Origin: an uncultured Rickettsiales bacterium
GTDB lineage: Bacteria; Pseudomonadota; Alphaproteobacteria; Rickettsiales; UBA1997
Length of the DNA: 64,000 bases
NCBI GenBank assembly: GCA_944392135.1
Contig: CALXVQ010000002.1
Location: forward strand, 49,825-113,824
Direction: 5' to 3'
Below are positions 15,311 through 33,269 of the stretch, piece after piece; positions within the stretch are counted from its first letter, which is position 1; every line of letters begins with the position of its first letter. Below the pieces are notes generated by a model, which was given only the letters and a program-made list of their open reading frames with translations, searched no databases and was not told the DNA's origin. A program made the position numbers and the translations under genes.

Positions 15311-15323
15311 GAGATATTATAAA

Positions 15324-18300
15324 ATGAACATTATAAAAGACAATCAACAGAATAACCAACAGAATAATAAAAATACTAATAAACATACCAATAAACTTAC
15401 AATATTTAAGCTTATAGAATCTTTGAAAACTTTTTTATCAAAAAATTGTATTTTTCTTGCATTTAACAAAAATTTAATATATCATATAATATATGTCTTT
15501 TTAGTTTTTACATCTATAATGCAAATATTTATTTTTAAATATTTTATATTTTTTTGTACAAAATTAAAGCATATTTTTAGTAAATATGTCTTTAGTAGAT
15601 ATATATTTAATAAAGGTAGATTTAATAAGTATCTTATTCTTTTAAAATCTTTTGGTTTTATTAACTTTTTAAATTCTAAAAAACTACTCTTAACAATTCT
15701 TTCCTATATCATAATATACTCCCAAATAACATTCTCCTTCATTATAACTCAATCAGTAGCCCAATCCATTATCTCAATAATATCTATAAAAAGAGCATAC
15801 GCCTTTAATGAGATAGTTCCCCCTCAAAACCTTCAAGATAACCCCATAAACCATATAACTCCCGATAACTCAATCAATATTCCCGGAACCAATAGCAACA
15901 CACACCTTGACCGTACTCAAAACGGCACTCCCGTTGTAAACATAAACAATGCTAATGCTGATGGTATAAGTGCAAACTACTATAAAGACTTTAATGTAAA
16001 TGAACAGAACCTTATATTAAACAATCATAAGGGTGAAAGTGTAAATACCCAATTAGGTGGAGTAGTATATGGCAACCCAAACTTCAATAATTCTAATGGA
16101 AGAGAAGCTGATATAATCCTAAATGAAGTTACCACAAACAGAGTATTCAATATAAATGGCTATATGGAAGTAGCAGGCAAGAGAGCGGATGTAATAATAG
16201 CAAATCCAAATGGTATTATGGTAGGTGGTGCAGGATTTATAAATACCAATAGATTAAGCATGATTACTGGAAAGTCTATTGATGGAACAACCAACTCATC
16301 CTTTAACCAAAACGGAGAACTAAACCCTTTCCTTCTCACCGACACCAACAAAAACCCCAACGCCATAATACAGGTAGTGGGTAGAAATATAACAGACAGT
16401 CAAGGAAGAAATATAGCCTATAATCTAGGTATAGATGCACAGGATGTTAGATATGCAGACCTTGTAAGTAGAGTAGTAAAGATAAATGGAAATATACACG
16501 GTGGAGATGGAAAGAACAATAAAAACAACATATCAACAGAAGTAAATATTAAAACTGGAAATGACAGAGCAGAATATAATAAAAAAGATGGTTTTAAAAT
16601 AAACAGTAGAGAAACCAAAGACCAATCTAAAAACACCATAAATGACCCACAGGATACAGATAGTACAGAAGAAGCCACTAAACCCGAATTCGCCATAGAC
16701 TCCACAGCCTTTGGCGGTATCTATGCAGGCAGAATCAACTTCATAGCCACAGAAGAAGGAGTTGGAGTTAGAACTAGAAGCGACCTTGTAGCAAGCACCG
16801 ATGATTTAAACTTTGATGTAAATGGAAATATTATACTTGAAGAAGAAGGGAGTTTGTATGCAAAGAACAATATAAACCTAAATAATAAAAACAATAATAG
16901 CAGTGAATCCAACAACCAGAACACCAACAGACAAATAGTAAATAACTCCTACATAGTTTCAGAAAATAACATAAATATAAACACAAATGAATTTATAAAT
17001 AGCGATGCAAATGCAAACACGAATCCCAACATCAAAAAACCATTAGTCTTTGCTGCAAACAATATAAATATTCAAGCGGACATAGCGGATAACTCAAATA
17101 CATTGATTGAAACAAACACAAACAACAATGAAACAGATATAAACAACAATAAAACAGACACAAACAACAATAATAATAACAACAGCAATTACTCCGGCAT
17201 AATCAGCAACAATGGAACAATAAATTTAAACATATCAAATACATTGAATAATAACAATGGAAATATACTTGGTAAAAATGTAAATATAAAATATATCTCA
17301 CCCATAGATAAAAAAAGCACTGCCCAACAGCAATTTCAAATTCAAACCAAATCACAAACTCAAAAATTATCAGATAAATCAATAAACCAAACAATAGTTC
17401 AATCAACAACCCAAACAGCAGACCAAACCACAGCACCATCTCTTCCAATATCAAATTATGGTGGAAACATTGTGAGTAATGATGATATAACAATAGATAT
17501 ATTGGCAGATTACATTATAACAGGAACAATATTCTCAAAGAATGGCAATGTAGACATAAATGCAAAGGATATAATAAACCTAAGTGATGTAATAGGTGGA
17601 AATAATATAACATTCACGTCCAACAATGGAAACATCTACAACGGAAGTGAAACAAATTCAAATGCAAATATAATTGCAATGAATGATGTAATATTTAATA
17701 TATTGAAGCAAGAAAATGATACTGGCAATCTCTACAACTACGGCAAAATCTCAGCAGGAAACAACATAGAAATAAATGCAGAAGACAGTGTCTATAATGG
17801 TCTAGCTACTGGAAGCAATGCAACCATCACAGCCAACAACAGCCTAACCATTACCGCAAACAACAGAATAATAAACAAAGGCTATATTCAAGCAACAGGA
17901 CTTACAGACCAAACCACAAGCAAAAAAATAGATGGAACGGGTAATTTAACATTAACCACAAAGGCAGAGATAAATAGTGATTATGAGCTAGGAAATAATA
18001 CTGCCAATGCAAATGCAAATACAAACACTAACCTTGATGATCTAAATAATAAAATCAACGGCAATGAAGATAAAACCCTATCGCCAGAAGTTCAATCTAA
18101 ATTTGACAATCTAAATAGTATAACCGATACAAATGAGCTATATGATCTAATACCACAGCTTAAAACAGAAGAACAATATTATCTTGTTAAAAACAGAATA
18201 CGAATATTAGCAATTAAAGAAACCCTAAATGATCTTGATGAACTTTATACATTTAATGAAGAGGACTGGAAAGATAAATCAGATGAAGAAATAAAAGAAC

Positions 18301-21300
18301 AGCTTCAAGGAATCTTTGGCAATAATTATGATGAAGAATTAGATAACAGTATAAATGGTGCATACAGCAATTATTTATCTCAAAGGGAAACAGAAATTGA
18401 TAATTTAATTGAACAACAGCTCATCAGAAAGCAAGAGGCAGAAGATAATAGCGAAGAATTTAATGAAACCCTATTGGACAAAAACAAACTAATGGCAGAA
18501 GCAGAGACAGAAGCCAATGCAAAGAAATTAGAAAAAATAAAAGATGAAATGGATTCTGAAAAGTCTAAGGTAAATAGATATCTAACCGACCTAAACAATA
18601 GCAACTGGGATTCCCTAACCAATGGACAGATTAATGAGAACCTTCAGGATATACTAAACAACAACTACATTGCTCAAAACTGGTCCATACCAGAATATCA
18701 AGCTGTTGATAATATAACACCTATTACAAACGAATATCTAGGAAGCTTAAGAATAAATGATAAAGACCTAAACGACCAAAATAAAAAAAATAAAATGGAG
18801 CAAACCGGTATACACAACTATGGAAGAATCTATTCAAATAACGATATGGAATTAAATTCAAATAGTGTACTCCATAATAATAAAGGAGCATTGATATATT
18901 CAAACAACAACATAAATTTCAACATAAACAAAGTTCTTTTTAACAACGAGAATGCACTAGGACAGGGAATATTCGCAAACAATGATATTAACATAAGAGG
19001 CTATTGTGATAAAAATGATACAGCATGCCAAACCAACATAGATAAATACAGCCAACACCCCTCCCTTGAAAAGCTGATAAACTATGATGGAAGAATAGAG
19101 GCAAATAACAATATAGACATAAAAAGCAATGAAGTAATAAACTATGGAAGCGACAGCATAGATTTAAGCAAAGTTGATACGGAAATCAAACCCATATACG
19201 ACTATTACTACACAACAAAAAGTGGATTCAGAACAAAAAAAACCTACATAACCAAAGAAGAATACGAAAGCAGAATAGCAAGTGGAAACAACAAAGATAA
19301 TTACGGCAGAACAATCACACTCGGCAAAACTTTCAAATGGTATGGAGTAGAAGAAACACCAGAGCTATTGCAGGCATATGGAACAAACTATAACTTCATT
19401 CAAAATGCAGGGCTATACCAGACAGTTCTAAAAGCCTACGACACCGCCTACTCAAAGGTTATATCAAATGAATCTGTTATACAAAGCAACAATGGAAACA
19501 TAAACATAAAAGCAAACAATACCACAAACTACAACACTGTATTATTCTCAAAGAATGATATGGCGATAGATACTAAAAACCTTCTAAACAAAAACCTAGA
19601 ATTCAATGTAAATGCAAACCAGTACTACCAATACCACGGCAAGAAAAAAAAATGGACAGGCCATGCAAAGGAATACTATGATGAATGGACTAGCCATGTA
19701 GTTTTAAACATAAAAGGCAGTAAAACAGCAAAGATACTGGCAGGAAATGATTTAGTAATATCAGCCAATGCAATAGGCAATGGGACAGCACAATCAAATT
19801 CAGACTATTCAAATAATTCAAATAGATTACCCTACACCCAACAGACAACACCACAAACCACAATTGAGGACCTGCTATCCAGCGGCATACTAAACCCGCT
19901 TGACAGCACACAGCTCCCACAGGGCAACTACGGCATATTCAGACAACCGCAGAACCCAAACTCAAATTATCTATTTGAAACAGATCCCACACTAATTGAT
20001 ACAAACAGGTTTTTAGGAAGTAAATACTTCATGAACAGACTAGGACTAGATCCAGACACAATAGATTTAAAATTTCTAGGCGACAGTTATTTTGAACACG
20101 AACTCATCAGAAAAGCCATAGAACAGCAAAGCCTATCAACAAACACCCATTTAGACCCACAACAAATAAAACAGCAAATAGACAACCTCTACAACTCTAT
20201 GACACAGGAAAAGGCACAACAGCTAAACCTAACCATAGGAGAACCACTAACAGAACAGCAAAGAGCACAGCTTACAGAAGACACCATATGGTATGTCAAA
20301 CAGGAAGTACAACTACCAAACGGCGAAACCATAGAATCATTAGTTCCACAAATATTCTATTGCAACACAACACTTGCAAGACTAGAACAAGAAAGAATAT
20401 TGAACACAGCGGGAAGCATGCTTGCCGGCACAAATGTAATATTACAAACAAAGCCAAACAGCACAGACAACATAAACAATACAGACAACACAGACGACAC
20501 CATCTTCAACACCATCCTATCCAACAGCGGCACCATAACCGCCAAAAACACATTAGCCATAACAGGCTTTGACACTATATCCAACGTAACCTCATCCATA
20601 AGAAACGATGACATAAACTCACTGTCACAGGACAAATTCAACAACCAAGCCACTCTAACTGCTGGAAATACACTTATTATAGACACAGGAGTTAATGGAA
20701 CTGTAAATAATTTGAGTGGGATGATTGCACTCAACAACACGAATGACAACACTTCATCAACCCAAAACAGTTTATACGACAATCTTCTTTATATAAACAC
20801 CGGGACATTAAACAACATAACATTATCTCAACAGGAAACAGTAGAAAAGCAAACCCACAGCAAAAAGAACGATTACGAATTCAGCAAAACCTCAACCTAT
20901 ATTGGAGACACAGCTGCAATACAATCAAGCAACAACAATTCAAATATAATAATAAATGCCAATGAGGACATAAACATACTAGGGGGAGACATAAAAACAA
21001 CAATAAAAGAACAAGACAACTCCAACATAGTCCTAAATGCAGGCAACAACATCAACATAGCTGCAATACAGGACTATGAATACCAAAGACAATACATGAG
21101 GCGAAAAGGTGGAACATTTGGCGAAACCTTAACCAAAGAGAACATAGACCAATCAGTTACCAATATACAATCCAATATATCAGCAGGAAACAATCTATCC
21201 ATAGCCACAGGAAATGATCTTAACTCCATAGGAACTAACTTTACTGCAAACAATGGAGATATAGATCTAAATATAAAAAATGATTTAAATCTTTATAATG

Positions 21301-22409
21301 CAATGGACTATGTATATGATTACGATTATACAAAGAGAGAATCATTTGACCTAGCATCCGCCATAGTTAATGTAGCAAGTGCAGTTGCAGTTGGAGCATT
21401 AACAGGAGGAGCAGGTGCAGCAGTTATGGCAGGAATAAGTGCAACAAGTAATGCAGCCGGTATGACCAAAGGATCAATAGACATAGAAACAAATTATGAT
21501 GAAACAATAGTTGCAAATAATATAACAGGAAATAATATTAATATAAATACAAATAATAGCCTCAACTCCATAAGTACAAAAATGAATACAGAAAACACCA
21601 TAAATTATAATATAGGAGGTAATTCATTTATTAGTGAGGCACAAGAAAGACATGAATATAAAATAACACATGAGGAATTCGGTGGAAATATAGGTAGGGC
21701 AGTATTAGGTGGTGCTATCACTGGTGCTATGAGCGGTTTAGGATTAAATGGAGGCAAATACTTAGGTAATTTAGCTAGTAGCTCTATTACTGATGGCATT
21801 TTAAATGCTAGCATTAATGGGGCAGTTCTTACTTCTGTAAATGCATATAGTTCATCAATAGGATCTGCGATGTCTCAAACTATATTAAATGGAGGAAGCT
21901 TTAAAGATGTATTAAAAGCAGGAAGAGATAGCTCAATAAGTCGTAATACATTAATGAATACTATGATTGGTGCCGTTATTGGTGCTACTGGCGGAGCTTT
22001 GGGTAAAGTTATTAAGGATGTAAAAGCTAAATATAATAGTTCTCTAACACAAGAACAAATACAAAATAAAATGACTGAAATACCAGTTGGGGAATCTAAT
22101 TTAAAGATTGGTAATCTAAATAATAATAAAGTCGGTATAAATTCTTATATTAAAGATGGAAAAATAATACAGGCTGGAACACTTAATATAAATGTTAATT
22201 ATTTTACAAGTAATCAAAACATATTTTTTAAGGCTTTTAATTTTTTACCTGGTTCGCCATCTTTTGCAGATTTTCACGATGCTTTGAATATAAGTGGAAT
22301 TTGGAATCAATTATCTATCCCATATGCTTATATGATAAGTCAATTTAATGCCCTATATCCATATTATCCATCACTTATATATTTTAACAATACGAAGGAA
22401 AACAAATGA
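15324..22409 (+). CDS. cdiA: TpsA/CdiA-like filamentous haemagglutinin exoprotein with C-terminal toxin domain
   Basis: TPS domain (NPNF, IIANPNGI), FHA repeats, YLFETDP...FLGS.YF region, Gly zipper, compositionally distinct C-terminus; start uncertain (TTG 15309/ATG 15324). Confidence 0.9.
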   Translation: MNIIKDNQQNNQQNNKNTNKHTNKLTIFKLIESLKTFLSKNCIFLAFNKNLIYHIIYVFLVFTSIMQIFIFKYFIFFCTKLKHIFSKYVFSRYIFNKGRFNKYLILLKSFGFINFLNSKKLLLTILSYIIIYSQITFSFIITQSVAQSIISIISIKRAYAFNEIVPPQNLQDNPINHITPDNSINIPGTNSNTHLDRTQNGTPVVNINNANADGISANYYKDFNVNEQNLILNNHKGESVNTQLGGVVYGNPNFNNSNGREADIILNEVTTNRVFNINGYMEVAGKRADVIIANPNGIMVGGAGFINTNRLSMITGKSIDGTTNSSFNQNGELNPFLLTDTNKNPNAIIQVVGRNITDSQGRNIAYNLGIDAQDVRYADLVSRVVKINGNIHGGDGKNNKNNISTEVNIKTGNDRAEYNKKDGFKINSRETKDQSKNTINDPQDTDSTEEATKPEFAIDSTAFGGIYAGRINFIATEEGVGVRTRSDLVASTDDLNFDVNGNIILEEEGSLYAKNNINLNNKNNNSSESNNQNTNRQIVNNSYIVSENNININTNEFINSDANANTNPNIKKPLVFAANNINIQADIADNSNTLIETNTNNNETDINNNKTDTNNNNNNNSNYSGIISNNGTINLNISNTLNNNNGNILGKNVNIKYISPIDKKSTAQQQFQIQTKSQTQKLSDKSINQTIVQSTTQTADQTTAPSLPISNYGGNIVSNDDITIDILADYIITGTIFSKNGNVDINAKDIINLSDVIGGNNITFTSNNGNIYNGSETNSNANIIAMNDVIFNILKQENDTGNLYNYGKISAGNNIEINAEDSVYNGLATGSNATITANNSLTITANNRIINKGYIQATGLTDQTTSKKIDGTGNLTLTTKAEINSDYELGNNTANANANTNTNLDDLNNKINGNEDKTLSPEVQSKFDNLNSITDTNELYDLIPQLKTEEQYYLVKNRIRILAIKETLNDLDELYTFNEEDWKDKSDEEIKEQLQGIFGNNYDEELDNSINGAYSNYLSQRETEIDNLIEQQLIRKQEAEDNSEEFNETLLDKNKLMAEAETEANAKKLEKIKDEMDSEKSKVNRYLTDLNNSNWDSLTNGQINENLQDILNNNYIAQNWSIPEYQAVDNITPITNEYLGSLRINDKDLNDQNKKNKMEQTGIHNYGRIYSNNDMELNSNSVLHNNKGALIYSNNNINFNINKVLFNNENALGQGIFANNDINIRGYCDKNDTACQTNIDKYSQHPSLEKLINYDGRIEANNNIDIKSNEVINYGSDSIDLSKVDTEIKPIYDYYYTTKSGFRTKKTYITKEEYESRIASGNNKDNYGRTITLGKTFKWYGVEETPELLQAYGTNYNFIQNAGLYQTVLKAYDTAYSKVISNESVIQSNNGNINIKANNTTNYNTVLFSKNDMAIDTKNLLNKNLEFNVNANQYYQYHGKKKKWTGHAKEYYDEWTSHVVLNIKGSKTAKILAGNDLVISANAIGNGTAQSNSDYSNNSNRLPYTQQTTPQTTIEDLLSSGILNPLDSTQLPQGNYGIFRQPQNPNSNYLFETDPTLIDTNRFLGSKYFMNRLGLDPDTIDLKFLGDSYFEHELIRKAIEQQSLSTNTHLDPQQIKQQIDNLYNSMTQEKAQQLNLTIGEPLTEQQRAQLTEDTIWYVKQEVQLPNGETIESLVPQIFYCNTTLARLEQERILNTAGSMLAGTNVILQTKPNSTDNINNTDNTDDTIFNTILSNSGTITAKNTLAITGFDTISNVTSSIRNDDINSLSQDKFNNQATLTAGNTLIIDTGVNGTVNNLSGMIALNNTNDNTSSTQNSLYDNLLYINTGTLNNITLSQQETVEKQTHSKKNDYEFSKTSTYIGDTAAIQSSNNNSNIIINANEDINILGGDIKTTIKEQDNSNIVLNAGNNINIAAIQDYEYQRQYMRRKGGTFGETLTKENIDQSVTNIQSNISAGNNLSIATGNDLNSIGTNFTANNGDIDLNIKNDLNLYNAMDYVYDYDYTKRESFDLASAIVNVASAVAVGALTGGAGAAVMAGISATSNAAGMTKGSIDIETNYDETIVANNITGNNININTNNSLNSISTKMNTENTINYNIGGNSFISEAQERHEYKITHEEFGGNIGRAVLGGAITGAMSGLGLNGGKYLGNLASSSITDGILNASINGAVLTSVNAYSSSIGSAMSQTILNGGSFKDVLKAGRDSSISRNTLMNTMIGAVIGATGGALGKVIKDVKAKYNSSLTQEQIQNKMTEIPVGESNLKIGNLNNNKVGINSYIKDGKIIQAGTLNINVNYFTSNQNIFFKAFNFLPGSPSFADFHDALNISGIWNQLSIPYAYMISQFNALYPYYPSLIYFNNTKENK

Positions 22410-22780
22410 AAGAGTTAAAAAAATTTAAATTTATTATAATTTTGCTATTATTGGCAGGCTGTAATGGTTGGACGAAAACGTGGTTTTATGAAGAATATAA
22501 TAATAACATTCTTTCAAATGAGATAAGAAAAATAGATTGGAAGCAGAACGGTAGTGAATATAAACAGTATTGTGTTTATTCGTTATCATATTTTTTACCA
22601 TTAAATTTTTGGAATGTAAAATTTTCCAATGAACAGTACGTAAAAAAAGCCATTAAAGATCTAAATAAAGATGGATTTAAAGGAGATAATATGAAGAATA
22701 TTTATATTAATAGTGAAGGTTTAGGAACACCTTTATATTCTTATTATTGTATAAAAATAAGTGGAGAAATAGTTGAATAA
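22406..22780 (+). CDS. candidate immunity lipoprotein 1 (TRL-like)
   Basis: Lipobox LAGC; ATGA overlap with cdiA stop; C...C-I-K-I-S-G end resembling TRL-like lipoproteins. Confidence 0.7.
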   Translation: MKELKKFKFIIILLLLAGCNGWTKTWFYEEYNNNILSNEIRKIDWKQNGSEYKQYCVYSLSYFLPLNFWNVKFSNEQYVKKAIKDLNKDGFKGDNMKNIYINSEGLGTPLYSYYCIKISGEIVE

Positions 22781-25700
22781 TATATCTATTATATCCATAA
22801 ATACAATAAAACCTCTCACCCCAACCCCTATCCCTCAAGAGGCGAGGGACTCTGACTTAGCAACAAACATTAACCTCAACATAGGCGGCAACATATCCAT
22901 AACAGAAACAGAGGAAAGACATGAATATCAAAAAACCCATGACACTTGGGGCGGAGATCTCGGTATGGCAGCATTGGGTGGAGCTATGACTGGACTTGCC
23001 GGTGGTTTAGGCATGGGTGCAGGAAATATGATTGGCGGTACTTTAAGTGGACTAGCCTTGTCAGGAGCATCAGCCTTTGGCTCTTCTAATGTAGGTGCAG
23101 TAATTTCAGAAAACAGGAAAGGAACATCAAACGGAACTTATACAACAAATCAAATAGGCAGTGATATAATAGCCTTAAATGATATTAATATAACCACAGA
23201 CAATAATTTAAATATAGTTGGAAGTGATTTGACATCCCTAAACAACACAACACTAAACTCAAACAATGGCAGTGTAAACATAACAACAGCAGTAGAAACC
23301 CAAACAACAGAACAAACCAAAACAAAAACCAACTGGGGAGGAATAGACTTTACACATACGAATAGTAGTGTGGGGGTTGGAGCAAGTATAGAAAGAAATA
23401 CCACAAGCAGCACAGCCACAACCCAATATGCAAAAAGCAGCAATATTCAAAGTGGAAACAATATTGCCATAAGTAGTGGCAATAATAATTCAAATAACAG
23501 TACAGACACTAATACCAAAAACAACAACCAGCAACAGGACATCAACATCATAGGTTCAAATATCTTGGCAGAAAACGACATAAAACTCAATGCAAATGGA
23601 GATAATGGAAATATTAAGATTATAAGTCAAGAACTTCTTCAAAACAAACTTGACAAGCAAAAGACTGAGGCTATTACGGCGAGTGTAGGGATAACAAACT
23701 ATTGGGCTAAAACCGCCGATCAAACACATAATCTGATAGACAATTCAAAAGGCGGTGCAAGAGACAGCAAAGAGGGCTATACAAACACATTCTTTGATTT
23801 AGGCAATATTGGCATATCAGTAATGAATGCTGCCGGCAGTCCATTAGGCTTTGGTATAAGTGCAGACATAGGCTATAATCTTATAGAAACAGAGACAGCC
23901 CAGAACAATACCTACAATCAAGAAAGTTCTATTGTATCAAACAAAGGCAGCATAGACTTAAATGCAGAGAACGATATAAATATCAAAGGTGCAGATATAA
24001 TTGCAAACAACGATGCACAAATAACTGCACAGAATGGCAATATAAACATTGATACAATAGAAGACTATAACTATAAATACCAGCATGCTGAAAGAAGCGG
24101 CGGAACATTTGGAACTACAAAAACTATGGATTCAATAGATGAAAGCAACAAAAACATTGGAAGCAATATTGTATCAAACAATGGAAGCCTGCACCTACAG
24201 GCAAATAGTTCAAACAACAGCACAAACAAAAACCTACAAACAGCAGGAAACATAAATATAAAAGGCTCAAATATAATGTCTGAAACTGGCGCAAATCTTG
24301 TGGCTGAAAATGATGTGAATGTATTTAGCAGTATTGATGCCAATAGAACCTACAGAAAAGTAGAAGAAGACAATAAATTTACAGGTGGAGAACTTGATAT
24401 AAATGAGAATATCACCAATACCAACAACTCCTCAAACATAATTTCAAACAATGGAGATCTAAACATAATATCAGGCAGAAATACAAACATAGTAGCAAGC
24501 AATCTGGTAACTGATGAAAGCGGAGACATAAACATTCTTGCTGGCTATATTGTAGACAAAAATACTGGAAATATAGTTCAAAAAACAGATAAAGATGGAA
24601 ACATAACAACAGGCTCTATAAACATCCTATCAGCCCAAGATCTTGAGAAGAACTATTCAAAGCACGAAGAATGGGGTGGAGTCTTTGACATGCTGACCAA
24701 CTTTGACATAGACTTTGATAAAGGCGGACTAACCCTAAGCACCAGCTACGAAGAAGAACTTGATGAGAACACCACACTTACAAAAACCGCAAAAACATCA
24801 AACCTAGAAGCTAGCAACGGAAATATAAACCTAAATGCTACAGAAAATATATTAAGTGTTGGTACTCAAATATATGCGAATAAAGACATAAACCTCAGTG
24901 CTGGCTACACTGAAACTAAAACAGATGAAGATGGAACCACAACTCAAATCAAACACAATGGCAACATAATTCTAGCATCAGCAGACAATAGTCAAACAAT
25001 AGACTCAAAACACGAAGAAACTACAGTAACTATTGGAGTTAAGGTTGGCAATAGCTTTGTGGATGCGGGATATGCAGTGGATGCAGTAGTAAAAGCCGGC
25101 GAAGAAGTAAAACATGCAAAGGATGAACTAAGTAGAATGAAAAAACTAAGAGACGAAGGCAAGGCAAGTGATAATGCCGTAAAGGATGCAGAAGTAAATC
25201 TTGCAATGGCTACTGCTAACCTTGCTAATTCAACACTTGGTATGGCAACTGCCATGGGAAGTGCAGCCGTAAGTACTCCAACAGGTGGTTTTTATGGAAG
25301 TGCATTCACAAACTATGATACGACCACCACAACATCAAACGAACAATCAACTTGGCAAACACAGGGCAATCTCATATCAAATAGCGGCAATATAAATTTT
25401 AACACCACAAATGATATGACACAGGAAGGAACTAACCTATATGCAAGCAATGATAATGGAACAGGAACAATAAACTACAATATAGGAAATGATTTAACAA
25501 TACAAGCAAGTAAAGATACCTACAAGGCGAATTCAAAAACAGAAAACACAAATGTTAATGCAAGCATAGGTACAAACGGATTTAGTATTGGCGGCGGTGG
25601 TGGCAGCTCAAAGAGTAGAACAGATAGCACGACCTATAACAATAGTGAAGTGCTTGCAAATAACATCAATATAAACACAGAAAACAATGCAAGCATAAAA

Positions 25701-27341
25701 GGTGCCAATATAGAAGCTACAAATGATATTAATATGAACATAGGCAACAACCTCAACATAGAGTCATTACAGGATACATATTATAGCAAATCAAACTCAA
25801 ACAATGCAAATATAGGAATAGGAAGCAGCAGTATAAGCGGAGGCTATAATACAGAAAAAAGTTATACAGATAGTAGTTGGGTAAACAATCAAACAAGCAT
25901 TATAGCAGATAACAAAGTAGATATAAAAGTAGGCACAAAAACTGATGATAATGGAAACAATATAGCAGAAGGAAACACAAACATAAAAGGTGCTTTAATA
26001 GCTTCAAACTCTGATAATTTAAATTTAGAGACAAACACACTAACCTATCAAGATATAAAAGACACCTACTACACAGAAACAAAAGGATCTGGCTTCAATA
26101 CCACAATAGGAACAGATCCAGACAAAGGCAAAGCAAACATAGCACCTATGGGAAGCACCACTATAACAATGAAAGATACAGGAGAAGAAAAAGAACAGAT
26201 TACAAAATCTACAATAGGCAATGGAAACATTACAATAGGCGGACAAACTCAACCGGAAGACAGTAGTATGCTTGCTGGACTTAACAGGAATGTGACAGAC
26301 AGCCAAGAGATTACAAAAGATATGATTACAGGTGCATTGGATGGAAGTGTAACAATAGACAATAGACTATTATTTGGCTTCATAGAGCAAAATGTCTATG
26401 AAAGAGATGAAAATGGCAAAATAATAAGAGATAAAGACGGAAAAGCAATAGTAAAAACAGATGCGAATGGCAATCCAATAACTACTAATGGTTATCAGAG
26501 TATATATAGTGATGTGAGAAACTTTGGAACAAATACAGCAGGAGCATTAGTTGGTGCAATGTCTGAAGCAGAAGAAATCGCAGAATTTGGAAGAGAAAAT
26601 TTAGAAAAAGGTGGAAAAATTGGTATTGTAGCATCACAGCCATTTAGTGCTGTTGAAGGATTCTTTGATTATTTTGTTGAAAATGATAGTAAGGCTTATC
26701 TATACGATAAAGATGGTGGTTATAAAGAAACAAATAATATAAAAGATGGTAAAAATTATTATACAAATGGTATAATGAATACAGTTAATAAGGATGTAAA
26801 AGAATATTTATCTAACAATCAAGATTCAGTAGTTCGCTATAATCCAACAAGTGGATTTATTGGCGATTTAATGGAATCAACACTTGGAAAGTTATTGAAT
26901 TGGAATGGCTTGACTGCTCAATTGGGTTCTATGAATAGAATTATAGCAAATGATTTAACCGAAAGAAAAGATATGCAATATTCAAGCAATAATTTCCATA
27001 GTCAAGGAACAATTAATGGAACTGGAGCTATGAACATATTAGCTAAAAATGATATAAAATTAAATGATACTCAAAGTTTAAATGCAAAAGGTCCTGCTGT
27101 TTATAATAGAACTTGGGATAATACAGCTTCACAAGTTTTAGATAGAAAAACCTATGTTGCAGCCGATGATGGTGGACTTGGTAAAAAGGGAGATGTTTTA
27201 CATTCAAATATTACATATTCACATAATGAAAAAGACCCAGTAAGGTATTTAACAGCTCCAAGAACACCATTAGATATTTTTATTGGTCTTTATTATGGTG
27301 CGACAAATATGAAGGAACATAATATTGGTAGTTATAAATAA
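22773..27341 (+). CDS. orphan/displaced C-terminal half of CdiA (FHA-2 repeats plus lipase-like toxin)
   Basis: No signal peptide or TPS domain; haemagglutinin repeats; C-terminal YTNGIMNT, YNPT...DLME, FHSQG alpha/beta-hydrolase motif. Confidence 0.8.
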   Translation: MNNISIISINTIKPLTPTPIPQEARDSDLATNINLNIGGNISITETEERHEYQKTHDTWGGDLGMAALGGAMTGLAGGLGMGAGNMIGGTLSGLALSGASAFGSSNVGAVISENRKGTSNGTYTTNQIGSDIIALNDINITTDNNLNIVGSDLTSLNNTTLNSNNGSVNITTAVETQTTEQTKTKTNWGGIDFTHTNSSVGVGASIERNTTSSTATTQYAKSSNIQSGNNIAISSGNNNSNNSTDTNTKNNNQQQDINIIGSNILAENDIKLNANGDNGNIKIISQELLQNKLDKQKTEAITASVGITNYWAKTADQTHNLIDNSKGGARDSKEGYTNTFFDLGNIGISVMNAAGSPLGFGISADIGYNLIETETAQNNTYNQESSIVSNKGSIDLNAENDINIKGADIIANNDAQITAQNGNINIDTIEDYNYKYQHAERSGGTFGTTKTMDSIDESNKNIGSNIVSNNGSLHLQANSSNNSTNKNLQTAGNINIKGSNIMSETGANLVAENDVNVFSSIDANRTYRKVEEDNKFTGGELDINENITNTNNSSNIISNNGDLNIISGRNTNIVASNLVTDESGDINILAGYIVDKNTGNIVQKTDKDGNITTGSINILSAQDLEKNYSKHEEWGGVFDMLTNFDIDFDKGGLTLSTSYEEELDENTTLTKTAKTSNLEASNGNINLNATENILSVGTQIYANKDINLSAGYTETKTDEDGTTTQIKHNGNIILASADNSQTIDSKHEETTVTIGVKVGNSFVDAGYAVDAVVKAGEEVKHAKDELSRMKKLRDEGKASDNAVKDAEVNLAMATANLANSTLGMATAMGSAAVSTPTGGFYGSAFTNYDTTTTTSNEQSTWQTQGNLISNSGNINFNTTNDMTQEGTNLYASNDNGTGTINYNIGNDLTIQASKDTYKANSKTENTNVNASIGTNGFSIGGGGGSSKSRTDSTTYNNSEVLANNININTENNASIKGANIEATNDINMNIGNNLNIESLQDTYYSKSNSNNANIGIGSSSISGGYNTEKSYTDSSWVNNQTSIIADNKVDIKVGTKTDDNGNNIAEGNTNIKGALIASNSDNLNLETNTLTYQDIKDTYYTETKGSGFNTTIGTDPDKGKANIAPMGSTTITMKDTGEEKEQITKSTIGNGNITIGGQTQPEDSSMLAGLNRNVTDSQEITKDMITGALDGSVTIDNRLLFGFIEQNVYERDENGKIIRDKDGKAIVKTDANGNPITTNGYQSIYSDVRNFGTNTAGALVGAMSEAEEIAEFGRENLEKGGKIGIVASQPFSAVEGFFDYFVENDSKAYLYDKDGGYKETNNIKDGKNYYTNGIMNTVNKDVKEYLSNNQDSVVRYNPTSGFIGDLMESTLGKLLNWNGLTAQLGSMNRIIANDLTERKDMQYSSNNFHSQGTINGTGAMNILAKNDIKLNDTQSLNAKGPAVYNRTWDNTASQVLDRKTYVAADDGGLGKKGDVLHSNITYSHNEKDPVRYLTAPRTPLDIFIGLYYGATNMKEHNIGSYK
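22812..22850. repeat. REP-like palindrome at cassette junction
   Basis: CCTCTCACCCCAACCCCTATCCCTCAAGAGGCGAGGGA resembles the CCCTCACCCCAACCCTCTCCC...GAGAGGG repeat family. Confidence 0.5.
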
Positions 27342-27356: not shown

Positions 27357-28055
27357 ATGAAAAATATGAAAAAATATATTATTTTAAAAATCTTTGGTTT
27401 TTTATTAGTTGTCTTTATAATTTCGTCTTGTACTTATAGAGATTTTAAGCACGAATTTTTTGCTGGATATTTTGTCAAAGATTATAATTTTGAATGGGAA
27501 GGCAAACAATCTAGAAAGTTAAATACAAATGATAGATATTGTTTATATTATAATGGTAGAAATGAGAAGGATTTTAAAATTAAAGGCTATGATATGGAAA
27601 AAGCGAATCAGCAGTTAATAGATATTTTAAAAAATAAAGGTTTAAAAATAAAAGAAGAAGTTTTTAATTTTACAAATAGTAAAGCAGAAAAGGATGATAT
27701 AGAAAATAGTATAAAAAAACGAGAAATTGATAATAATTTTGAAAATTGCGATTATTTATTGACATACGAAATTGGAACACTTGAAAGATTTAAAGAAAGT
27801 TATATTGACATTCGCATATATAATATTGCTACAGATGATATGGTTTCATCATATACTGTTTATGGAAAAAAATCAACACTTATTTCTTATGTATTAATAA
27901 AACAACAAGAATTTATAAATAACGCTATTGATGAATTATTTAAATATCAAAATACTGAACAAGATAAAATGAAATTTAAATCTTTTGAATGTACTTCTAG
28001 TGGTTGTAGAACAATAAAATGTATTGGCGATAAGTGTGAGATAATAAATAATTAA
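27357..28055 (+). CDS. candidate immunity lipoprotein 2
   Basis: Lipobox ISSC; follows lipase-like toxin; C-terminal ECTSSGC. Confidence 0.65.
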   Translation: MKNMKKYIILKIFGFLLVVFIISSCTYRDFKHEFFAGYFVKDYNFEWEGKQSRKLNTNDRYCLYYNGRNEKDFKIKGYDMEKANQQLIDILKNKGLKIKEEVFNFTNSKAEKDDIENSIKKREIDNNFENCDYLLTYEIGTLERFKESYIDIRIYNIATDDMVSSYTVYGKKSTLISYVLIKQQEFINNAIDELFKYQNTEQDKMKFKSFECTSSGCRTIKCIGDKCEIINN

Positions 28056-28062: not shown

Positions 28063-28635
28063 ATGAAAAAATACATTATTTTAATTTTGACTATTTTAAG
28101 CTTGATATTTATAAATAAAATAGCTTTTGCTAATAAAGAATTTAATAAACAAACATTACCGATGCAGGATAAAATAGAAAAAGAACAAGACAATAATAAA
28201 ACTAATGATATTGCTAAAGAAAAAGAATTTGCAAAATATGCAGATTATCTGGATGATATGAGACAAGGTAAAAAATGTGAAGGTTATGATTTTGATCCAG
28301 AAAAGATTGTATTGATAAAGATTGTAAATCCAGAATACTATATTGAGTTAAGCAATGGTAAAAAATTTAGAATTGAAGCTTGGATGGGTGATTGCGGTTC
28401 AATAGATTTAAAAGGCAAAGATGGCTATAAACAACTACCAGATAGTTGTAAAATTTTAATAGGATCTACTTGTATTTCTCCGCCACCTTCTAATTGTAAA
28501 AAATTAATAGGAACGACTTGTTGGGACGAGAAAGTCAAACAGGATTATCAAGTGTTTCAATGGGAATGCACCAATAAAGGTTGTGAAAGAATGACAAACT
28601 TTACAGAATATGATCTGGATTTTTTTGAAGAGTAA
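28063..28635 (+). CDS. candidate orphan immunity protein (exported, Cys-rich)
   Basis: Signal peptide ending AFA; ECTNKGC; similar to 29918-30556. Confidence 0.6.
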   Translation: MKKYIILILTILSLIFINKIAFANKEFNKQTLPMQDKIEKEQDNNKTNDIAKEKEFAKYADYLDDMRQGKKCEGYDFDPEKIVLIKIVNPEYYIELSNGKKFRIEAWMGDCGSIDLKGKDGYKQLPDSCKILIGSTCISPPPSNCKKLIGTTCWDEKVKQDYQVFQWECTNKGCERMTNFTEYDLDFFEE

Positions 28636-28652: not shown

Positions 28653-29921
28653 ATGTCAGTTGATGCAGAAGAAAGGATACATAACACAATAGAAAGCGAA
28701 GCAGTCGCAAAAAATATGGCAAACAGAGAAGTAGGTTATTACAATGCAATGGCATTTCTAACAGGTGGAAAGGGAATAGCTAGTTCTAATACATCAAATT
28801 CAAATAATGGTGGATTGAATGGTCAAATGCAATCAAACTGGAATGAGAAGTATAATACTAATACAAACCAGCTGTTGAATCAAAATACAATACTTGCAAA
28901 CAATGTAAAAAGTGAAGATAAGTTATATAGCACACACTTTGATAAAAATGGAAAAGCTGAATTTATAAATGATGGCGATTATAATGCATACAGAAAAAAT
29001 GAAGATGGTACTTTAAATTATGAAAATCAAATAACATATGCTGAAGGCTTTAATTTGAATATTGCAGATGATAAAAAAGAAGCATTTGAAGATCAAATGA
29101 AAACTAATGAAGTGCAGATGGATTTATTAAGACTGTTACTTATGGATTCAAATAAATCAATTACAGAAAACACTAAAGATCTAAATAGCCTTGAAACTCA
29201 ATATTTACTTGGTTTAAAAACACCAGATGGAACTTATTATTATAGTTGGAATAAATTTCTTGACAAGGACGGTACTAGAAGTAAAACAAACGAAGCATTA
29301 TCCAATGGAGCAGACGATTTTAGTTTGAATTATTTATATACAAATGACATATGGAAAACCATAGCCGACAATTCAAGTGGTATTTCCTATCCAACACAAA
29401 AAACAATGGGGGCTTTTGATATAAAGATTGATGAAAGTAGAACTATTATAAATCCAGCAGTTGGTCAAGAAGTTAGAACAAAAGAGAATGGAACTTGTAG
29501 GACTCCGGGATGTGGCGAAAAAGGTTCTTTGAGACCTGGTCATACGCATCAAGGAACTGATATTCTATTGAATGAAGGGGATTATGTCATAGCACCTATG
29601 GATGGAAAATTATATTATACTACGAGTAGTAAAGATAAAACTAAAGCATTAAACTCATTAGCTGTAGCTAATGATGATATAAGAATACTAATGCTATATG
29701 TTGATAAGAAATCTAATATAAAAATAAAGAAAAATGGTACAGATGTGGAAAAAGGTGGAGTAATTGGCAAAGGAACTTCTAATTCTGAATTTATAAGAGT
29801 TTACGGAAAAGATACTGCCCAGCATACACATGTGGAACAACAGAATGCAAACGATAGACTTGATAAAAAAGATATTCAAGGTGTATTATTTCCAAATCAA
29901 CAAAGGGAGTTAAAAAAATGA
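28653..29921 (+). CDS. orphan toxin module with C-terminal M23-family peptidase
   Basis: HQGTD, VIAPMDG, VEKGGVIG and HTHVE motifs; no signal peptide. Confidence 0.75.
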   Translation: MSVDAEERIHNTIESEAVAKNMANREVGYYNAMAFLTGGKGIASSNTSNSNNGGLNGQMQSNWNEKYNTNTNQLLNQNTILANNVKSEDKLYSTHFDKNGKAEFINDGDYNAYRKNEDGTLNYENQITYAEGFNLNIADDKKEAFEDQMKTNEVQMDLLRLLLMDSNKSITENTKDLNSLETQYLLGLKTPDGTYYYSWNKFLDKDGTRSKTNEALSNGADDFSLNYLYTNDIWKTIADNSSGISYPTQKTMGAFDIKIDESRTIINPAVGQEVRTKENGTCRTPGCGEKGSLRPGHTHQGTDILLNEGDYVIAPMDGKLYYTTSSKDKTKALNSLAVANDDIRILMLYVDKKSNIKIKKNGTDVEKGGVIGKGTSNSEFIRVYGKDTAQHTHVEQQNANDRLDKKDIQGVLFPNQQRELKK

Positions 29922-30556
29922 TTAAAATGAAATTATATATTGTCACAATATTTACTTTTTTTTATTGTGTTATTGGCTATTGTTTTGAATGGGAAAAATT
30001 AGAAAAAGTTGAAAAAAATTCAAAAATTCAAAGAGAAATTATTGGATATATGAGAACTTTTTATGTTGATGAAACAAAATACCAAGAAGTTAAAAATCAA
30101 GCTGATAATTTTAAAAATACAAAGTATATGGTATATGAAAATTTTGCACATAAAGATAATAATAAACTAACAGCTTGTAATCTAATAAATTTTAATCAAA
30201 ATTATATTACTGGGATATATTTAAAGAGAATGCCAAAAAATAAAGATATTAATTTGTATGATAATTTAACTTATGAAGAATCATATATTACATACAAAGA
30301 TGGACAAAAAATAAATATTAGAGATGCAGAATTTTTTAAATGTGGCGACCTAGATATAAAAGATTGCAATAAAACTGGAAATGATGGCATTGAATGTTTA
30401 AAACAGCTACCAAGTGAATGCGAATTTATTGTTTCTTCAAACAATGGCTCTTTTTGTATAGATTTAAAAAATGACGAAACAGCTTTAATTGAATATGGAT
30501 GTGATAGCAATGGATGCGCAGAATTAAATAATTTTGTTGAATATATTTATGATTAA
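29918..30556 (+). CDS. candidate immunity protein for the M23 toxin (exported, Cys-rich)
   Basis: ATGA overlap with toxin stop; signal peptide; GCDSNGC. Confidence 0.65.
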   Translation: MIKMKLYIVTIFTFFYCVIGYCFEWEKLEKVEKNSKIQREIIGYMRTFYVDETKYQEVKNQADNFKNTKYMVYENFAHKDNNKLTACNLINFNQNYITGIYLKRMPKNKDINLYDNLTYEESYITYKDGQKINIRDAEFFKCGDLDIKDCNKTGNDGIECLKQLPSECEFIVSSNNGSFCIDLKNDETALIEYGCDSNGCAELNNFVEYIYD

Positions 30557-30737: not shown

Positions 30738-33269
30738 ATGATTTTATATAAAATGCAAAGCATAAATTTCAAAAACACTAAAACACATACAATTGCAAAA
30801 CATCAAACACTATTGCAAATATTTATAGTAATACTCACACTTTTTGTTATTGTTTTATCAACCACCTCGCCCGCCTATGCCATCACCCCCCAAGAGCAGC
30901 AACTCCTCAACCAGCAGCTAATCCTTCAACAGCAGCAGGAGCAGAGAAGACAACAAGAACAGAATAGATTGCAGATAGATGATATTGAAAATATAAGAAG
31001 AACTAGGGTTGGAAGTGATGGTATTGAAAGTATTGATGGAAATGATGGAGTTGGTGGTGGTGCTAATGGTAATGAGGCTGGTGGTTCTTCATCTGCTTCA
31101 AGTTGTATTAAATTCAATAGAATAGAATTAATCGGAAATACTATATATTCAACAAAATATTTACAGAGAAAAGTATTAAATAAATATATAGATAGATGTA
31201 TCAATAAAAAGAATATAGATGATATAACTAATTCTTTAATGAAGATATATATTGATGATGGCTATGCTACAACTAGGATATATTTTGATATAGGTAAACT
31301 TAAATCAGAAAATATATTTATATTTGTGATTGATGAAGGAAAGGTTAATGATATTATATTGAATAATATATATCCAGAAAAGAAGAGCAACAAGAAATTG
31401 AATAAAAAAGAAGAAAGTAAAAAAGAAAGCAAGAATACAGAAAATAAAAAAGATAAAGATAAAAACAAAGATAAAACAAATAAAGAACACAATACAATAA
31501 ACAAAGAACAGAACAAACCAAAGGAAGATAAAACTTCCTTTCTTGATAAATACAAATCATTTCGTCTAAAATCTCAAACCTTCTTCGCATTTCCATTTCT
31601 TAAAGGCAAAGAGTTTAATTTAAGAGATTTTGAACAGGGACTTGATCAGTTGAATAGATTACAGAGTAATAATGCCACACTTGATATAAGAGCAGTACAA
31701 GAAATTAAAAATGAAGAATTAGGAATTAAGAATGAGCCTTCGGCAGAGAATCAAAGAGACAAAAATAAATCAAACAAAGCTAAATCCAACAAATCCACCT
31801 TAACCAAAGCCAAACCCAACAAATCCAAAACCTCTTCCAAAATTAGCGATGATCTAATATCGGCATCAGACATAATAATCAACAATCAAAAATCTTCCCC
31901 CATATCTTTCAGTATAGGACTTGATAACAGCGGCAATAAAAGCACAGGAGAAAATCTTGCTAATATAAATTTAAGTGTAGACAATCTAATAGGTATAGAT
32001 GATAACATATATTTGAAATATACACAGGATACAGATACAGAGAATAATAAAAGATACAATAAATCATTTTACAGCAATCTATCATTTCCATTGGGCTATT
32101 GGACATTCAATACAAGTATAAGCTATTCAAAATATCTCACTACCATTAACGGATACTATACAAGCTTCCATACAAGCGGAAATACATTAACACAAATGTA
32201 TAATATAGACAGAGTATTATTTAGAAGACAACTATTTAAAATAAATGCCGGAACAAATCTAACAGTAAGAGATACAGAAAGCTATATTAGAAATTTAAAG
32301 AGTATTACAGGAAGTAGAAAATCATCAAATATCAGTCTATACCTAAACAACATTATATACACAAAACTAGGAACAATAATTATAAAGCCATCATATCAAA
32401 AAGGGCTAGACTGGTTTAATTCAAAAAAAGATGATAGCCATAACCTAATGCTAAGAACAGAACCAAAACTACAATATGATATGGTTAAACTATATGTATA
32501 TTACAACACAAGAATAAATCTACCATTGTTTACAAAGACACAGGTAATAGATCCAAATACAAACCAACCAATAATGGTGGAAAGAGAAATTAAAAATGTA
32601 AAATTAAAAATTAAAAATGAAAAGTTAAATAAAAAAATTAAAAATAAGCCTTCGGCAGAGAATCAAAGAATAAAAAACAAAGAAAGCAACAAAGAACCAA
32701 CAACCCAACTAGTCCTACTCAAAGTCAGAAACAAAATCAATCTCAACTACACCCTAACATTTGACAGCCAATACTCTTGGGACACACTATACGGAACAGA
32801 TCAATTCAGTATCGGTGGAGAATACACAGTCAGAGGATTTAGAGAAGGAACCATAAGCGGAGACAATGGCTACTACATAAGAAACGATCTATCAATAAAT
32901 CTACAACAGCTATTCCCAAAATTTATACTGAATTCAAAAATTATGAGCTATGGAAGCAATACAAATATAAGCATAAAAGGTAAAAATTTAAGACTATTCC
33001 TAAACGACTTTCTAAGCAAAGCATACATCTCCATATTCTACGACTACGGCTATGTACAAGACAAATACAGTGATGATAGCGACACAATCTACAACTCCCA
33101 AAGCGGATACATGGCAGGCGCAGGCATTGCATTAAACTACTACGGACAATACCTAAACTGGTCCTTAACCTACGCAAAGGCGCTACATGCACCTAACTAT
33201 CTACAATCAAGAGATGGCATAAAAAAAGAAGGACATAGTGTGTATTGGAGGATTGGGGGAAGGTTTTGA
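30738..33269 (+). CDS. cdiB: TpsB/CdiB (ShlB/FhaC/HecB) outer-membrane transporter
   Basis: POTRA motifs YIDDGYATTR and LRDFEQGLDQLNRL; LDNSG, IGGEYTVRGF, C-terminal Phe; carries Lys-rich insertions. Confidence 0.93.
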   Translation: MILYKMQSINFKNTKTHTIAKHQTLLQIFIVILTLFVIVLSTTSPAYAITPQEQQLLNQQLILQQQQEQRRQQEQNRLQIDDIENIRRTRVGSDGIESIDGNDGVGGGANGNEAGGSSSASSCIKFNRIELIGNTIYSTKYLQRKVLNKYIDRCINKKNIDDITNSLMKIYIDDGYATTRIYFDIGKLKSENIFIFVIDEGKVNDIILNNIYPEKKSNKKLNKKEESKKESKNTENKKDKDKNKDKTNKEHNTINKEQNKPKEDKTSFLDKYKSFRLKSQTFFAFPFLKGKEFNLRDFEQGLDQLNRLQSNNATLDIRAVQEIKNEELGIKNEPSAENQRDKNKSNKAKSNKSTLTKAKPNKSKTSSKISDDLISASDIIINNQKSSPISFSIGLDNSGNKSTGENLANINLSVDNLIGIDDNIYLKYTQDTDTENNKRYNKSFYSNLSFPLGYWTFNTSISYSKYLTTINGYYTSFHTSGNTLTQMYNIDRVLFRRQLFKINAGTNLTVRDTESYIRNLKSITGSRKSSNISLYLNNIIYTKLGTIIIKPSYQKGLDWFNSKKDDSHNLMLRTEPKLQYDMVKLYVYYNTRINLPLFTKTQVIDPNTNQPIMVEREIKNVKLKIKNEKLNKKIKNKPSAENQRIKNKESNKEPTTQLVLLKVRNKINLNYTLTFDSQYSWDTLYGTDQFSIGGEYTVRGFREGTISGDNGYYIRNDLSINLQQLFPKFILNSKIMSYGSNTNISIKGKNLRLFLNDFLSKAYISIFYDYGYVQDKYSDDSDTIYNSQSGYMAGAGIALNYYGQYLNWSLTYAKALHAPNYLQSRDGIKKEGHSVYWRIGGRF

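Follow-up and report, generated by a model that had tools for sequence, protein, structure and literature searches.

Organization of the CDI locus

The DNA studied here (the window) is a stretch of 64,000 nucleotides from an uncultured Rickettsiales bacterium (contig CALXVQ010000002.1 of assembly GCA_944392135.1, positions 49,825 to 113,824 of the forward strand); judged by its domains and gene order, it holds a probable contact-dependent growth inhibition (CDI) locus of the two-partner secretion (TPS) kind, arranged as cdiA, cdiI, orphans, and cdiB (Table 1). Our subject is the relationship between the two long open reading frames (ORFs) of this locus, ORF1 (2366 codons) and ORF2 (1522 codons), which lie on the same strand and both in frame 0 of the ORF list, with a frame of 124 codons (P0003) between them. 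Pfam identifies a TPS secretion domain in ORF1 (PF05860, E 1.7e-29), and ShlB (PF03865, E 2.8e-71), POTRA_2 and POTRA_3 in the 843-aa product of the cdiB candidate. ORF2 contains Fil_haemagg_2 (PF13332) in five stretches (E 6.3e-36) and gave no Pfam match to a TPS domain; no Pfam FHA repeat match was found in ORF1. Residues 1876-2000 of ORF1 align with residues 390-522 of ORF2, the two being copies of one repeat, and the homologous stretch matches PF13332 in a 248-aa gene remnant (locus L016) on contig G004:C65, which comes from a second genome of the genus.

ORF2 starts at TTG 22773, which overlaps the stop codon of P0003, and a GGAG lies 6 nt upstream of it. No terminator-like site was found between P0003 and ORF2, and the promoter and terminator counts over 21000-23500 equal those of shuffled sequences. 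The translated N-terminus has no signal-like hydrophobic stretch by eye (no signal-peptide predictor was used). The pretoxin motif of ORF2 (LNRNV..SQEITKD, at residue 1170) lies 1,169 residues from the start; it is not recognised by Pfam, and motifs of this type recur in the proteins P0005, P0006, P0008, and P0011. The leader of ORF2 also carries a C-rich insert, KPLTPTPIPQEARDSD, with a 6-bp inverted repeat (TCCCTC..GAGGGA); it is present in a single copy in the genome (a genome search for copies of the C-rich leader returned the original only, plus a 29-nt junction match) and is conserved at the heads of the orphan-type proteins P0004, P0005, P0012, and P0031. The exact ORF2 protein is on record from 8 contigs, and alleles with the same start are intact as well: P0005 (1336 aa) on 10 contigs and P0004 (1039 aa) on 2.

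The count of 2366 codons for ORF1 runs from TTG 15309, and an ATG at 15324 is the likelier start. The first ~165 codons of ORF1 (15309-15800), ahead of the TPS domain, are very AT-rich (GC 0.16-0.19) and encode an odd basic/hydrophobic stretch, unlike the usual TPS signal peptide; the assignment of the start codon is uncertain.

Table 1. Features of the CDI locus, in coordinates of the window.
Feature	Position (nt)	Strand	Basis
ORF1, current CdiA-like exoprotein	15309..22409	+	ORF list, translation; N-part collinear with long relatives
ORF1 TPS secretion domain	15858..16835	+	PF05860; residues 20-345 of the piece starting at 15801
Putative 5′ homology arm of the incoming cassette, within ORF1	21252..21764	+	C/T change point; 45% identity to ORF2 33-103; alignment with uninterrupted relatives
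Short pretoxin stretch like the DUF637 start (AMSQTILNGGSFKDVLKAGRDS)	21765..22001	+	Alignment with G004:C65 protein and P0019
ORF1 C-terminal toxin candidate, FADFHDA at 22263	22002..22406	+	Relatives at 42-45% in G077:C69 and G017:C39
P0003, 124-aa lipoprotein, candidate cognate immunity protein	22406..22780	+	Lipobox LAGC; similar lipoproteins after relatives of the ORF1 toxin
ORF2, probable displaced distal part of a former long CdiA	22773..27341	+	Fil_haemagg_2, without TPS; collinear with distal halves of relatives
C-rich 16-codon insert (KPLTPTPIPQEARDSD) in the ORF2 leader	22809..22856	+	Not in homologues at that position
Junction copy 2, resident copy (ERHEY at 22914 and Gly-rich stretch)	22869..23072	+	Filament-type third positions; collinear with G017, P0006, P0009
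ORF2 pretoxin motif (LNRNV..SQEITKD) and linker common to P0005	26280..26558	+	Matches of relatives end nearby
ORF2 C-terminal toxin candidate, FHSQGT/Asp/His	26559..27338	+	Conserved residues; codon-style change point at 26472
232-aa lipoprotein, candidate immunity protein for the ORF2 toxin	27357..28055	+	31-32% to genes after G004:C12 orphans
190-aa secreted protein, candidate orphan immunity protein	28063..28635	+	45% to the gene after an M23-type orphan in G004:C12
Probable older displaced toxin remnant, M23 peptidase, 422 codons	28653..29921	+	PF01551; 97.6% to P0005 C-terminus
212-aa candidate immunity protein for the M23 toxin	29918..30556	+	Position, N-terminal hydrophobic signal, Cys-rich C-terminus like the 190-aa protein
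cdiB/tpsB outer-membrane transporter	30738..33269	+	PF03865, POTRA domains; codon style of the filament

A repeat shared by ORF1 and ORF2

An identical 15-mer, GAAAGACATGAATAT, occurs at 21645 and at 22914, an offset of 1269 bp (423 codons) in the frame of both ORFs, as the original prediction for this DNA had it. By itself the 15-mer is within chance, since the two ORFs have a second, unrelated 15-mer in common (at 16869 and 24822; there is no common 16-mer), and the reality of the repeat rests on the protein-level match in which the 15-mer is embedded: residues 2098-2153 of ORF1 and 33-103 of ORF2 share 32 of 71 positions (45%; BLASTP, E 2e-13). The claim that a peptide of ORF1 matches the start of ORF2 therefore holds, 16 of the 26 residues being identical in the two peptides quoted for it. 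In-register similarity of the DNA is confined to about 21580-21759, where 113 of 180 bases are identical (63%). With only 45% of their residues in common, the two junction copies are not a recent duplication. Removal of the 1269 bp would, by arithmetic only, leave 2112 + 1475 = 3587 codons from TTG 15309, in agreement with the single frame of about 3580 aa predicted earlier.

Uninterrupted relatives of ORF1 and ORF2

We scanned 1.84 billion representative proteins with HMMER, using ORF2 residues 25-424 as the query, and obtained 23 proteins at E ≤ 0.001; in addition, ORF2 has a match in 10 of the 41 genomes compared here (the genome of the window and 40 others of its family and order). Several of these relatives carry in one polypeptide what the window carries in two. 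In P0006, residues 1-303 resemble ORF1 1891-2190 (56%) and residues 276-603 resemble ORF2 86-424 (52%). P0009 covers the window regions 19920-20399 (ORF1 1538-1697), 20415-21899, 22848-24050, and 26505-27287 in this order, and ends in the same FHSQG-type domain as ORF2. The match to ORF2 lies at 1417-1776 in P0008 (2387 aa), whose junction block is found near residue 1417 and which has TPS-domain sequence visible in its N-terminal part, and at 1388-1776 in P0015 (2079 aa). A gene of 3165 aa in G016 aligns with ORF1 1368-2200 over residues 944-1787 and with ORF2 51-1195 over residues 1696-2745, and a gene in G017 spans the junction too. An ORF1-like N-part and an ORF2-like distal part are also found in one frame in G004:C12 (3106 aa), in a G001 fragment, and in G023, G021, and G016:C8; one G001 protein is about 62% identical to both ORF1 417-597 and ORF2 384-947. 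The original prediction of an ancestral CdiA contiguous over ORF1 and ORF2 had been tied beforehand to a search for such homologues, and the search found them (P0006, P0009, P0008, G016, and G017).

Other searches added little. A word-based search for longer proteins with ORF2 1-500 gave 0 at E ≤ 0.001 among 2876 scored candidates, which is weak evidence; scans of metagenome contigs (with ORF1 1888-2112 and with the junction alignment) and of viral contigs found no relatives, and a scan of the genome collection with the junction alignment returned only the already known contig G004:C65. The source labels of the relatives disagree: L033, a contig of the same genus, is labeled "uncultured Rhizobiaceae bacterium", and P0009 "Elusimicrobiota bacterium".

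In one contig of the same genus (locus L019, G001:C136), a single frame is ORF1-like to about residue 2019 and then ORF2-like from about residue 384 (63%), and the junction block is skipped. Because of this, and because ORF1 1876-2000 and ORF2 390-522 are copies of one repeat, the length of FHA-2 appears to vary by recombination between internal repeats too.

Codon style along the two frames

The composition of the two frames changes sharply around the junction. The AT skew, 0.3-0.46 in the filament, is only about 0.0-0.13 over 21650-22850, and at four-fold third positions a usage of A.55, C.22, and T.18 gives way to C.05 and T.50. For the synonymous C/T sites of ORF1, a single change-point fit by maximum likelihood sets the break at nt 21252 (log-likelihood ratio, LLR, 43.8), about 390 nt upstream of the 15-mer, with a C fraction of 0.50 ahead of it and 0.16 beyond; in ORF2 the fraction drops from 0.43 to 0.10 at 26472 (LLR 34.1). 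Taken by part, the bodies of ORF1 and ORF2 have fractions of 0.50 and 0.43 and cdiB one of 0.39, against 0.16 for ORF1 between 21252 and its stop and 0.10-0.16 for every toxin or immunity unit. The junction copy in ORF2 retains the codon style of the filament, whereas the copy in ORF1 does not. The contrast between T-rich intervening DNA and A/C-rich flanks, described in the original prediction from the letters alone, is thus seen in both the AT skew and the C fraction along the ORFs, and the change point places the start of the incoming segment near nt 21,250 instead of at the 15-mer.

A T-rich style as such was considered as a sign of foreign DNA and rejected, because T-ending codons are the norm of this genome, and the filament and cdiB are the outliers. 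Most other genes of the window have a C fraction of 0.06-0.16, with intermediate values in LepA (0.38) and the phage tail genes (0.23-0.33); the stretches with C over T are 15801-21250, 22869-26471, and 30738-33266. The C-ending style of the CDI core could come from a foreign origin or from translational selection, the latter being an alternative cause because LepA is also C-ending.

The tail of ORF1 and its candidate immunity gene

The arm between the change point in ORF1 and the pretoxin stretch contains junction copy 1 (ERHEY at 21645) along with the last FHA-2-type repeat and a Gly-rich stretch. Past the shared block, ORF1 follows a 698-aa frame of G004:C65, and ORF2 follows the uninterrupted relatives. 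The 698-aa frame has a Pfam DUF637 domain, then a VENN motif, and then an M23 toxin, and its alignment with ORF1 stops just before the start of the DUF637 match. Pfam gave neither a DUF637 nor a PT-VENN match in ORF1, and no VENN motif was found in its translation; the pretoxin region of ORF1 is only a short stretch that resembles the start of DUF637 (by alignment with the G004:C65 protein and with P0019). Pretoxins of the DUF637/VENN type are frequent in the family, with matches in 39 of 126 genomes.

The pretoxin stretch is followed by a 135-residue tail with the motif FADFHDA. Relatives of this tail, at 42-45% identity, are found in G077:C69, as the C-terminal end of a 1862-aa frame, and in G017:C39; a second copy of the toxin type occurs in a G077 orphan, and the same short DUF637-like start precedes both G077 copies. 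The G017:C39 copy and the first G077 copy are followed by a small lipoprotein with the GC..GW start of P0003; after the second G077 copy comes a gene with a different signal. We also considered the ORF1 tail as a random truncation and rejected this, since the layout of short pretoxin and toxin recurs in G077 (two copies) and the toxin type in G017:C39. By these comparisons, the ORF1 tail and P0003 appear to be a recurrent cassette of toxin and candidate immunity gene. The toxin/immunity module that the original prediction placed between ORF1 and ORF2 is therefore found elsewhere as a toxin-plus-lipoprotein cassette, with the amendment that it begins near 21,250 and not at the 15-mer. An AlphaFold2 (AF2) model of the ORF1 toxin, built on a 5-sequence alignment, was too poor to use (mean pLDDT 38.4).

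The shared block as a joint

The block at which ORF1 and ORF2 resemble each other joins different ends in other proteins as well. P0012 and its longer cluster-mate P0031 (579 aa) start with the ORF2 leader and the ERHEY block nearly letter for letter, and after WGGDIG continue with an ORF1-type Gly-rich stretch, DUF637, VENN, and another toxin. The frames P0018 and P0019 are orphan-like as well and begin near the block. On G004:C65, an ORF1-like gene leads past the block into DUF637, VENN, and the M23 toxin, and downstream of it come a 227-aa gene and then the 248-aa ORF2-like remnant, which has a TAG; this contig of the same genus shows the same layout independently.

These comparisons suggest that the event at our locus joined a short DUF637-type end to a long gene of the LNR(D/N)V type, at a block common to both types. 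The exchange site would lie about 1,120 residues upstream of the LNRNV motif of ORF2, so that both filament length and toxin would have changed, as the original prediction held. Its claim that the site is internal, and not a VENN-type boundary, stands as far as this distance goes; the site is not an arbitrary one, however, since the junction block precedes the DUF637/VENN pretoxin domain in L016 and P0031. A more far-reaching suggestion, which we regard as tentative and rather unlikely, is that the E(R/K)H..H..(W/F)GG and Gly-rich block is a dedicated second exchange joint, at which entry apparatus and toxin are swapped together, and that selection preserves the large ORF2-type orphans intact, either as a reserve or for a product translated from a start of their own. 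The options at such a joint may be a long end (~1,100 aa of FHA-2, LNRDV pretoxin, and toxin) and a short end (DUF637-type pretoxin and toxin).

Orphan toxin and immunity candidates

Between ORF2 and cdiB are encoded a 232-aa lipoprotein, a 190-aa secreted protein, a 422-aa M23 frame, and a 212-aa protein. In G004:C12, two orphans of the ORF2 toxin type are each followed by a gene with 31-32% identity to the 232-aa gene. The 422-aa frame has a counterpart with 97.6% identity in residues 916-1336 of P0005, a protein that fuses it to an ORF2-type body and whose N-terminus is the ORF2 leader (96% over 417 residues); the C-termini differ among the alleles P0004, P0005, and ORF2. To all appearances, the locus is a stack of toxin and immunity units of differing ages. 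Toxins and immunity proteins were paired by comparison only, the ORF1 type with the small lipoprotein and the ORF2 type with the 232-aa relatives. In G004:C12 (locus L015), the 3106-aa CdiA-like gene is followed by orphan frames of 426, 415, and 950 aa, each with a small downstream gene, and two of these orphans have the FHSQGT toxin type of ORF2; further along lie a 630-aa M23-type frame, related to the 422-aa remnant of the window, and a 175-aa gene.

In the ORF2 toxin candidate, F208, H209, S210, Q211, G212, T213, D288, and H316 are invariant in 5 sequences, a pattern consistent with a Ser/Asp/His hydrolase. Its end had been called "lipase-like" in the original prediction; the basis for this name is no more than the conserved pattern of FHSQGT, Asp, and His and one weak lead from an Atlas search, whose best named match was DUF900 at 0.85, in 17% of the members of the cluster. 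When the ORF2 toxin alignment was run as a profile against solved structures, the matches were to unrelated proteins (best E 0.027), and the AF2 model of this toxin was again too poor to use (mean pLDDT 40.0). P0003 and the 232-aa protein have lipoboxes, and the 190-aa and 212-aa candidates have hydrophobic N-terminal signals; because the candidate immunity proteins bear such signals, their sequences suggest that the toxins of this locus act on the envelope.

Probable displacement of ORF2 and alternative explanations

We think it quite likely that ORF2 is the displaced distal part of a once longer CdiA, left behind after a toxin/immunity cassette entered the filament, because single uninterrupted relatives are collinear with ORF1 and then with ORF2. 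The C-ending style common to the ORF1 body, the ORF2 body, and cdiB, together with its retention in the junction copy of ORF2, fits a resident long gene whose 3′ part was displaced. The ancestral CdiA would have consisted of a TPS domain, the filament, a first FHA-2 block, the E(R/K)H..H..(W/F)GG block with its Gly-rich stretch, some 1,100 residues of FHA-2, an LNR(N/D)V pretoxin, and a toxin. The incoming DNA would have brought its own last FHA-2 repeat and Gly-rich block, a short DUF637-like start, a small FADFHDA toxin, and a lipoprotein immunity gene, and may have been joined by a homologous crossover near nt 21,250 on the left and by a non-homologous join on the right, within the block's resident copy at about nt 22,773-22,870. 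The event would have left ORF1 as a shorter, active CdiA that carries a new toxin and presumably uses the downstream CdiB for export, and ORF2 as the old distal part of 1,475-1,522 residues, pushed downstream with its immunity gene, ahead of the older M23-toxin remnant. Without a TPS domain, ORF2 would find the CdiB route closed, and the retained immunity genes would still protect against neighbours with the older toxins. ORF2 would then be an unusually large, silent-looking remnant; we infer its silence from the missing secretion domain, an N-terminus that corresponds to mid-filament sequence, a lipoprotein as its likely immunity protein, and the decayed counterpart in G004.

Several observations weigh against this history. 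ORF2 is a fully open frame of 1522 codons in a low-GC genome, with its exact protein on 8 contigs, and a dead remnant might be expected to decay, as the G004 counterpart has; given the GGAG and the lack of a terminator-like site, it may be translated. P0005, with an ORF2 leader and an M23 toxin, means that toxins were exchanged on an ORF2-type gene after the split or independently of it, so that the three displacement events may have occurred in more than one order. No undivided relative above about 60% identity was found among those compared; Pfam finds neither FHA repeats nor DUF637 in ORF1; and the toxin and immunity roles, for which both structure models were too poor, are candidate roles that rest on comparison.

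The further idea in the original prediction that the change was possibly reversible is unsupported. RecA-type recombination needs a minimal length of homology. Since the longest identical run is 15 nt and the identity is 63% over 180 bp, reversal by homologous excision should be very rare. Excision of the 1269 bp would, moreover, delete the immunity gene too, and loss of a cdi immunity gene is described as harmful among siblings in the text of PMC6336857.

One alternative, which we hold to be improbable, is that ORF2 is independently translated from TTG 22773, coupled to the immunity gene, and stays open because selection acts on a function of its own or preserves it as a reserve. The GGAG, the overlap with the P0003 stop, and the lack of a terminator-like site between them would suit such translation, as would a frame of this length kept intact at low GC, the long alleles intact on 8, 10, and 2 contigs, and the start that ORF2 shares with P0004, P0005, P0012, and P0031, among whose alleles the toxin domains still differ. 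The shared start may, however, reflect gene callers choosing the first start codon after a stop, and the protein itself argues the other way: it has no TPS domain and, by reading, no signal-like hydrophobic N-terminus, and its N-terminus is homologous to the middle of the uninterrupted relatives. In addition, the lipoprotein immunity candidate points to an envelope target, out of reach of a cytoplasmic protein, and the G004 counterpart is a 248-aa stump with a stop.

Slightly less probable still is a separate arrival of the two parts, in which ORF1 was always a short CdiA, ORF2 is a foreign long-cdiA fragment captured downstream, and no ancestral 3.6k-aa gene existed here. The low identity of the junction copies (45%, not a recent duplication) and the frequency of orphans with varied 5′ extents in the family (e.g., in G138:C22) would agree with this. 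It leaves aside, however, that one unusual codon style runs through cdiB and the bodies of ORF1 and ORF2, is left by ORF1 at 21252, and is kept by the junction copy of ORF2, that a single G001 protein has about 62% identity both to ORF1 417-597 and to ORF2 384-947, and that the order of the orphans fits a stepwise 5′-to-3′ displacement of the kind set out in the text of PMC6336857. That the layout is an artefact, a mis-join across repeats of a repetitive gene in a metagenome-assembled draft genome of 18 contigs, is very improbable, given that the exact ORF2 protein with this start is on 8 contigs, that G004:C65 has the same layout independently, that the repeat copies are too different (63% identical in DNA) to mislead an assembler, and, as weak support, that 0.91-1.00 of the 31-mers sampled from 20800-23800 occur in 8 runs from two studies (4 of the runs may be the source sample).

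Genomic surroundings

The CDI locus is flanked on one side by phage tail genes (176-13283), among them those for a gp44-like baseplate hub, a tape-measure/minor tail protein, an M15 peptidase, and Baseplate_J, and on the other by a large serine recombinase encoded on the minus strand (33457-35607); the entire locus may be cargo of a prophage or another mobile island. Further downstream, the region 37675-51090 encodes a 973-aa protein without a Pfam match, a 2000-aa protein with DEAD/ResIII helicase domains, and an N6 DNA methylase, with lepA interrupting the series; it may be a restriction or defence island. The sequencing runs that contain the stretch, by their 31-mer shares, are mostly chicken or bird gut metagenomes.

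Comparison with known systems

Toxin exchange in CDI is usually described at a VENN-type boundary and with small orphans; here the joint would be a conserved block inside FHA-2, and the exchange would also add or remove ~1,100 residues of the part of CdiA to which passage of the toxin through the target's outer membrane is attributed. The locus and its relatives offer natural pairs of alleles with the same secretion and filament part and either a short or a long FHA-2 end; such pairs could show how much of FHA-2 the delivery of envelope-acting toxins needs. They also extend the dynamics of CDI orphans to small-genome gut bacteria known only from metagenomes.

Among orphan Rhs toxins, in work ascribed to Koskiniemi in 2014, and in the exchange of meningococcal tpsA 3′-ends, ascribed to Arenas in 2013, silent toxin cassettes that lie downstream and have 5′ homology to the expressed gene can reportedly replace its end by recombination. 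The shared stretches of those systems are said to be near-identical, and switching is said to have been observed, unlike the block studied here, with its 63% identity and at most 15 identical bases.

In E. coli, Yersinia, Pseudomonas, and Burkholderia, cdi loci are known to have orphan cdiA-CT/cdiI modules downstream (Poole et al., 2011, as cited in PMC9086364), which are read as ancestral modules displaced by newer ones in the texts of PMC9086364 and PMC6336857. ORF2 and its candidate immunity gene resemble the orphan modules described in the text of PMC9086364: they lie downstream of cdiA-cdiI, the 5′ end is homologous to the upstream cdiA, and there is no secretion domain. Orphans of the Burkholderia type lie between cdiI and cdiB, as at this locus (PMC9086364). 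In the same text, orphans typically begin at the pretoxin motif (VENN or an equivalent) and have no start codon, whereas ORF2 begins ~1,170 residues upstream of its motif, keeps an entire block of FHA-2 repeats (1522 codons), and has a TTG after a GGAG.

The closest likeness in arrangement is with Acinetobacter type-II cdi loci, for which stepwise displaced orphans, "body" vestiges, and switch regions have been described (De Gregorio et al., 2019, PMC6336857). There, too, repeated insertions move older cdiA remnants from 5′ to 3′, a 5′ homology with an illegitimate 3′ join has been proposed, one and the same toxin is found linked to different upstream parts through short conserved joints, and the orphans include remnants of the cdiA body. 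The homology between ORF2 and ORF1 (45% over 71 aa, 63% in DNA) is far below the "identical tracts" of that account. The Acinetobacter vestiges are described as gene remnants, and in the running text of PMC6336857 neither an intact orphan of ~1,500 codons nor the swap of a long FHA-2 and LNRDV-type end for a short DUF637-type end is described.

The CdiA proteins of E. coli follow the plan TPS, FHA-1, RBD, YP, FHA-2, PT/VENN, CT (Ruhe et al., 2018, as cited in PMC9086364), and the proteins studied here share with them the TPS domain, the FHA-2-type repeats, a pretoxin before a variable C-terminus, and a downstream immunity gene candidate. Compared with the E. coli proteins as set out in PMC9086364, ORF1 has no VENN, no FHA repeats by Pfam, and only a short stretch like the start of DUF637, and the long relatives have a Gly-rich block in the middle of FHA-2 and end in LNR(D/N)V instead of VENN. 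The displacement of orphans is already known, and the locus is a variation on that theme and no new principle; what is new here is a very large orphan and a joint inside FHA-2.

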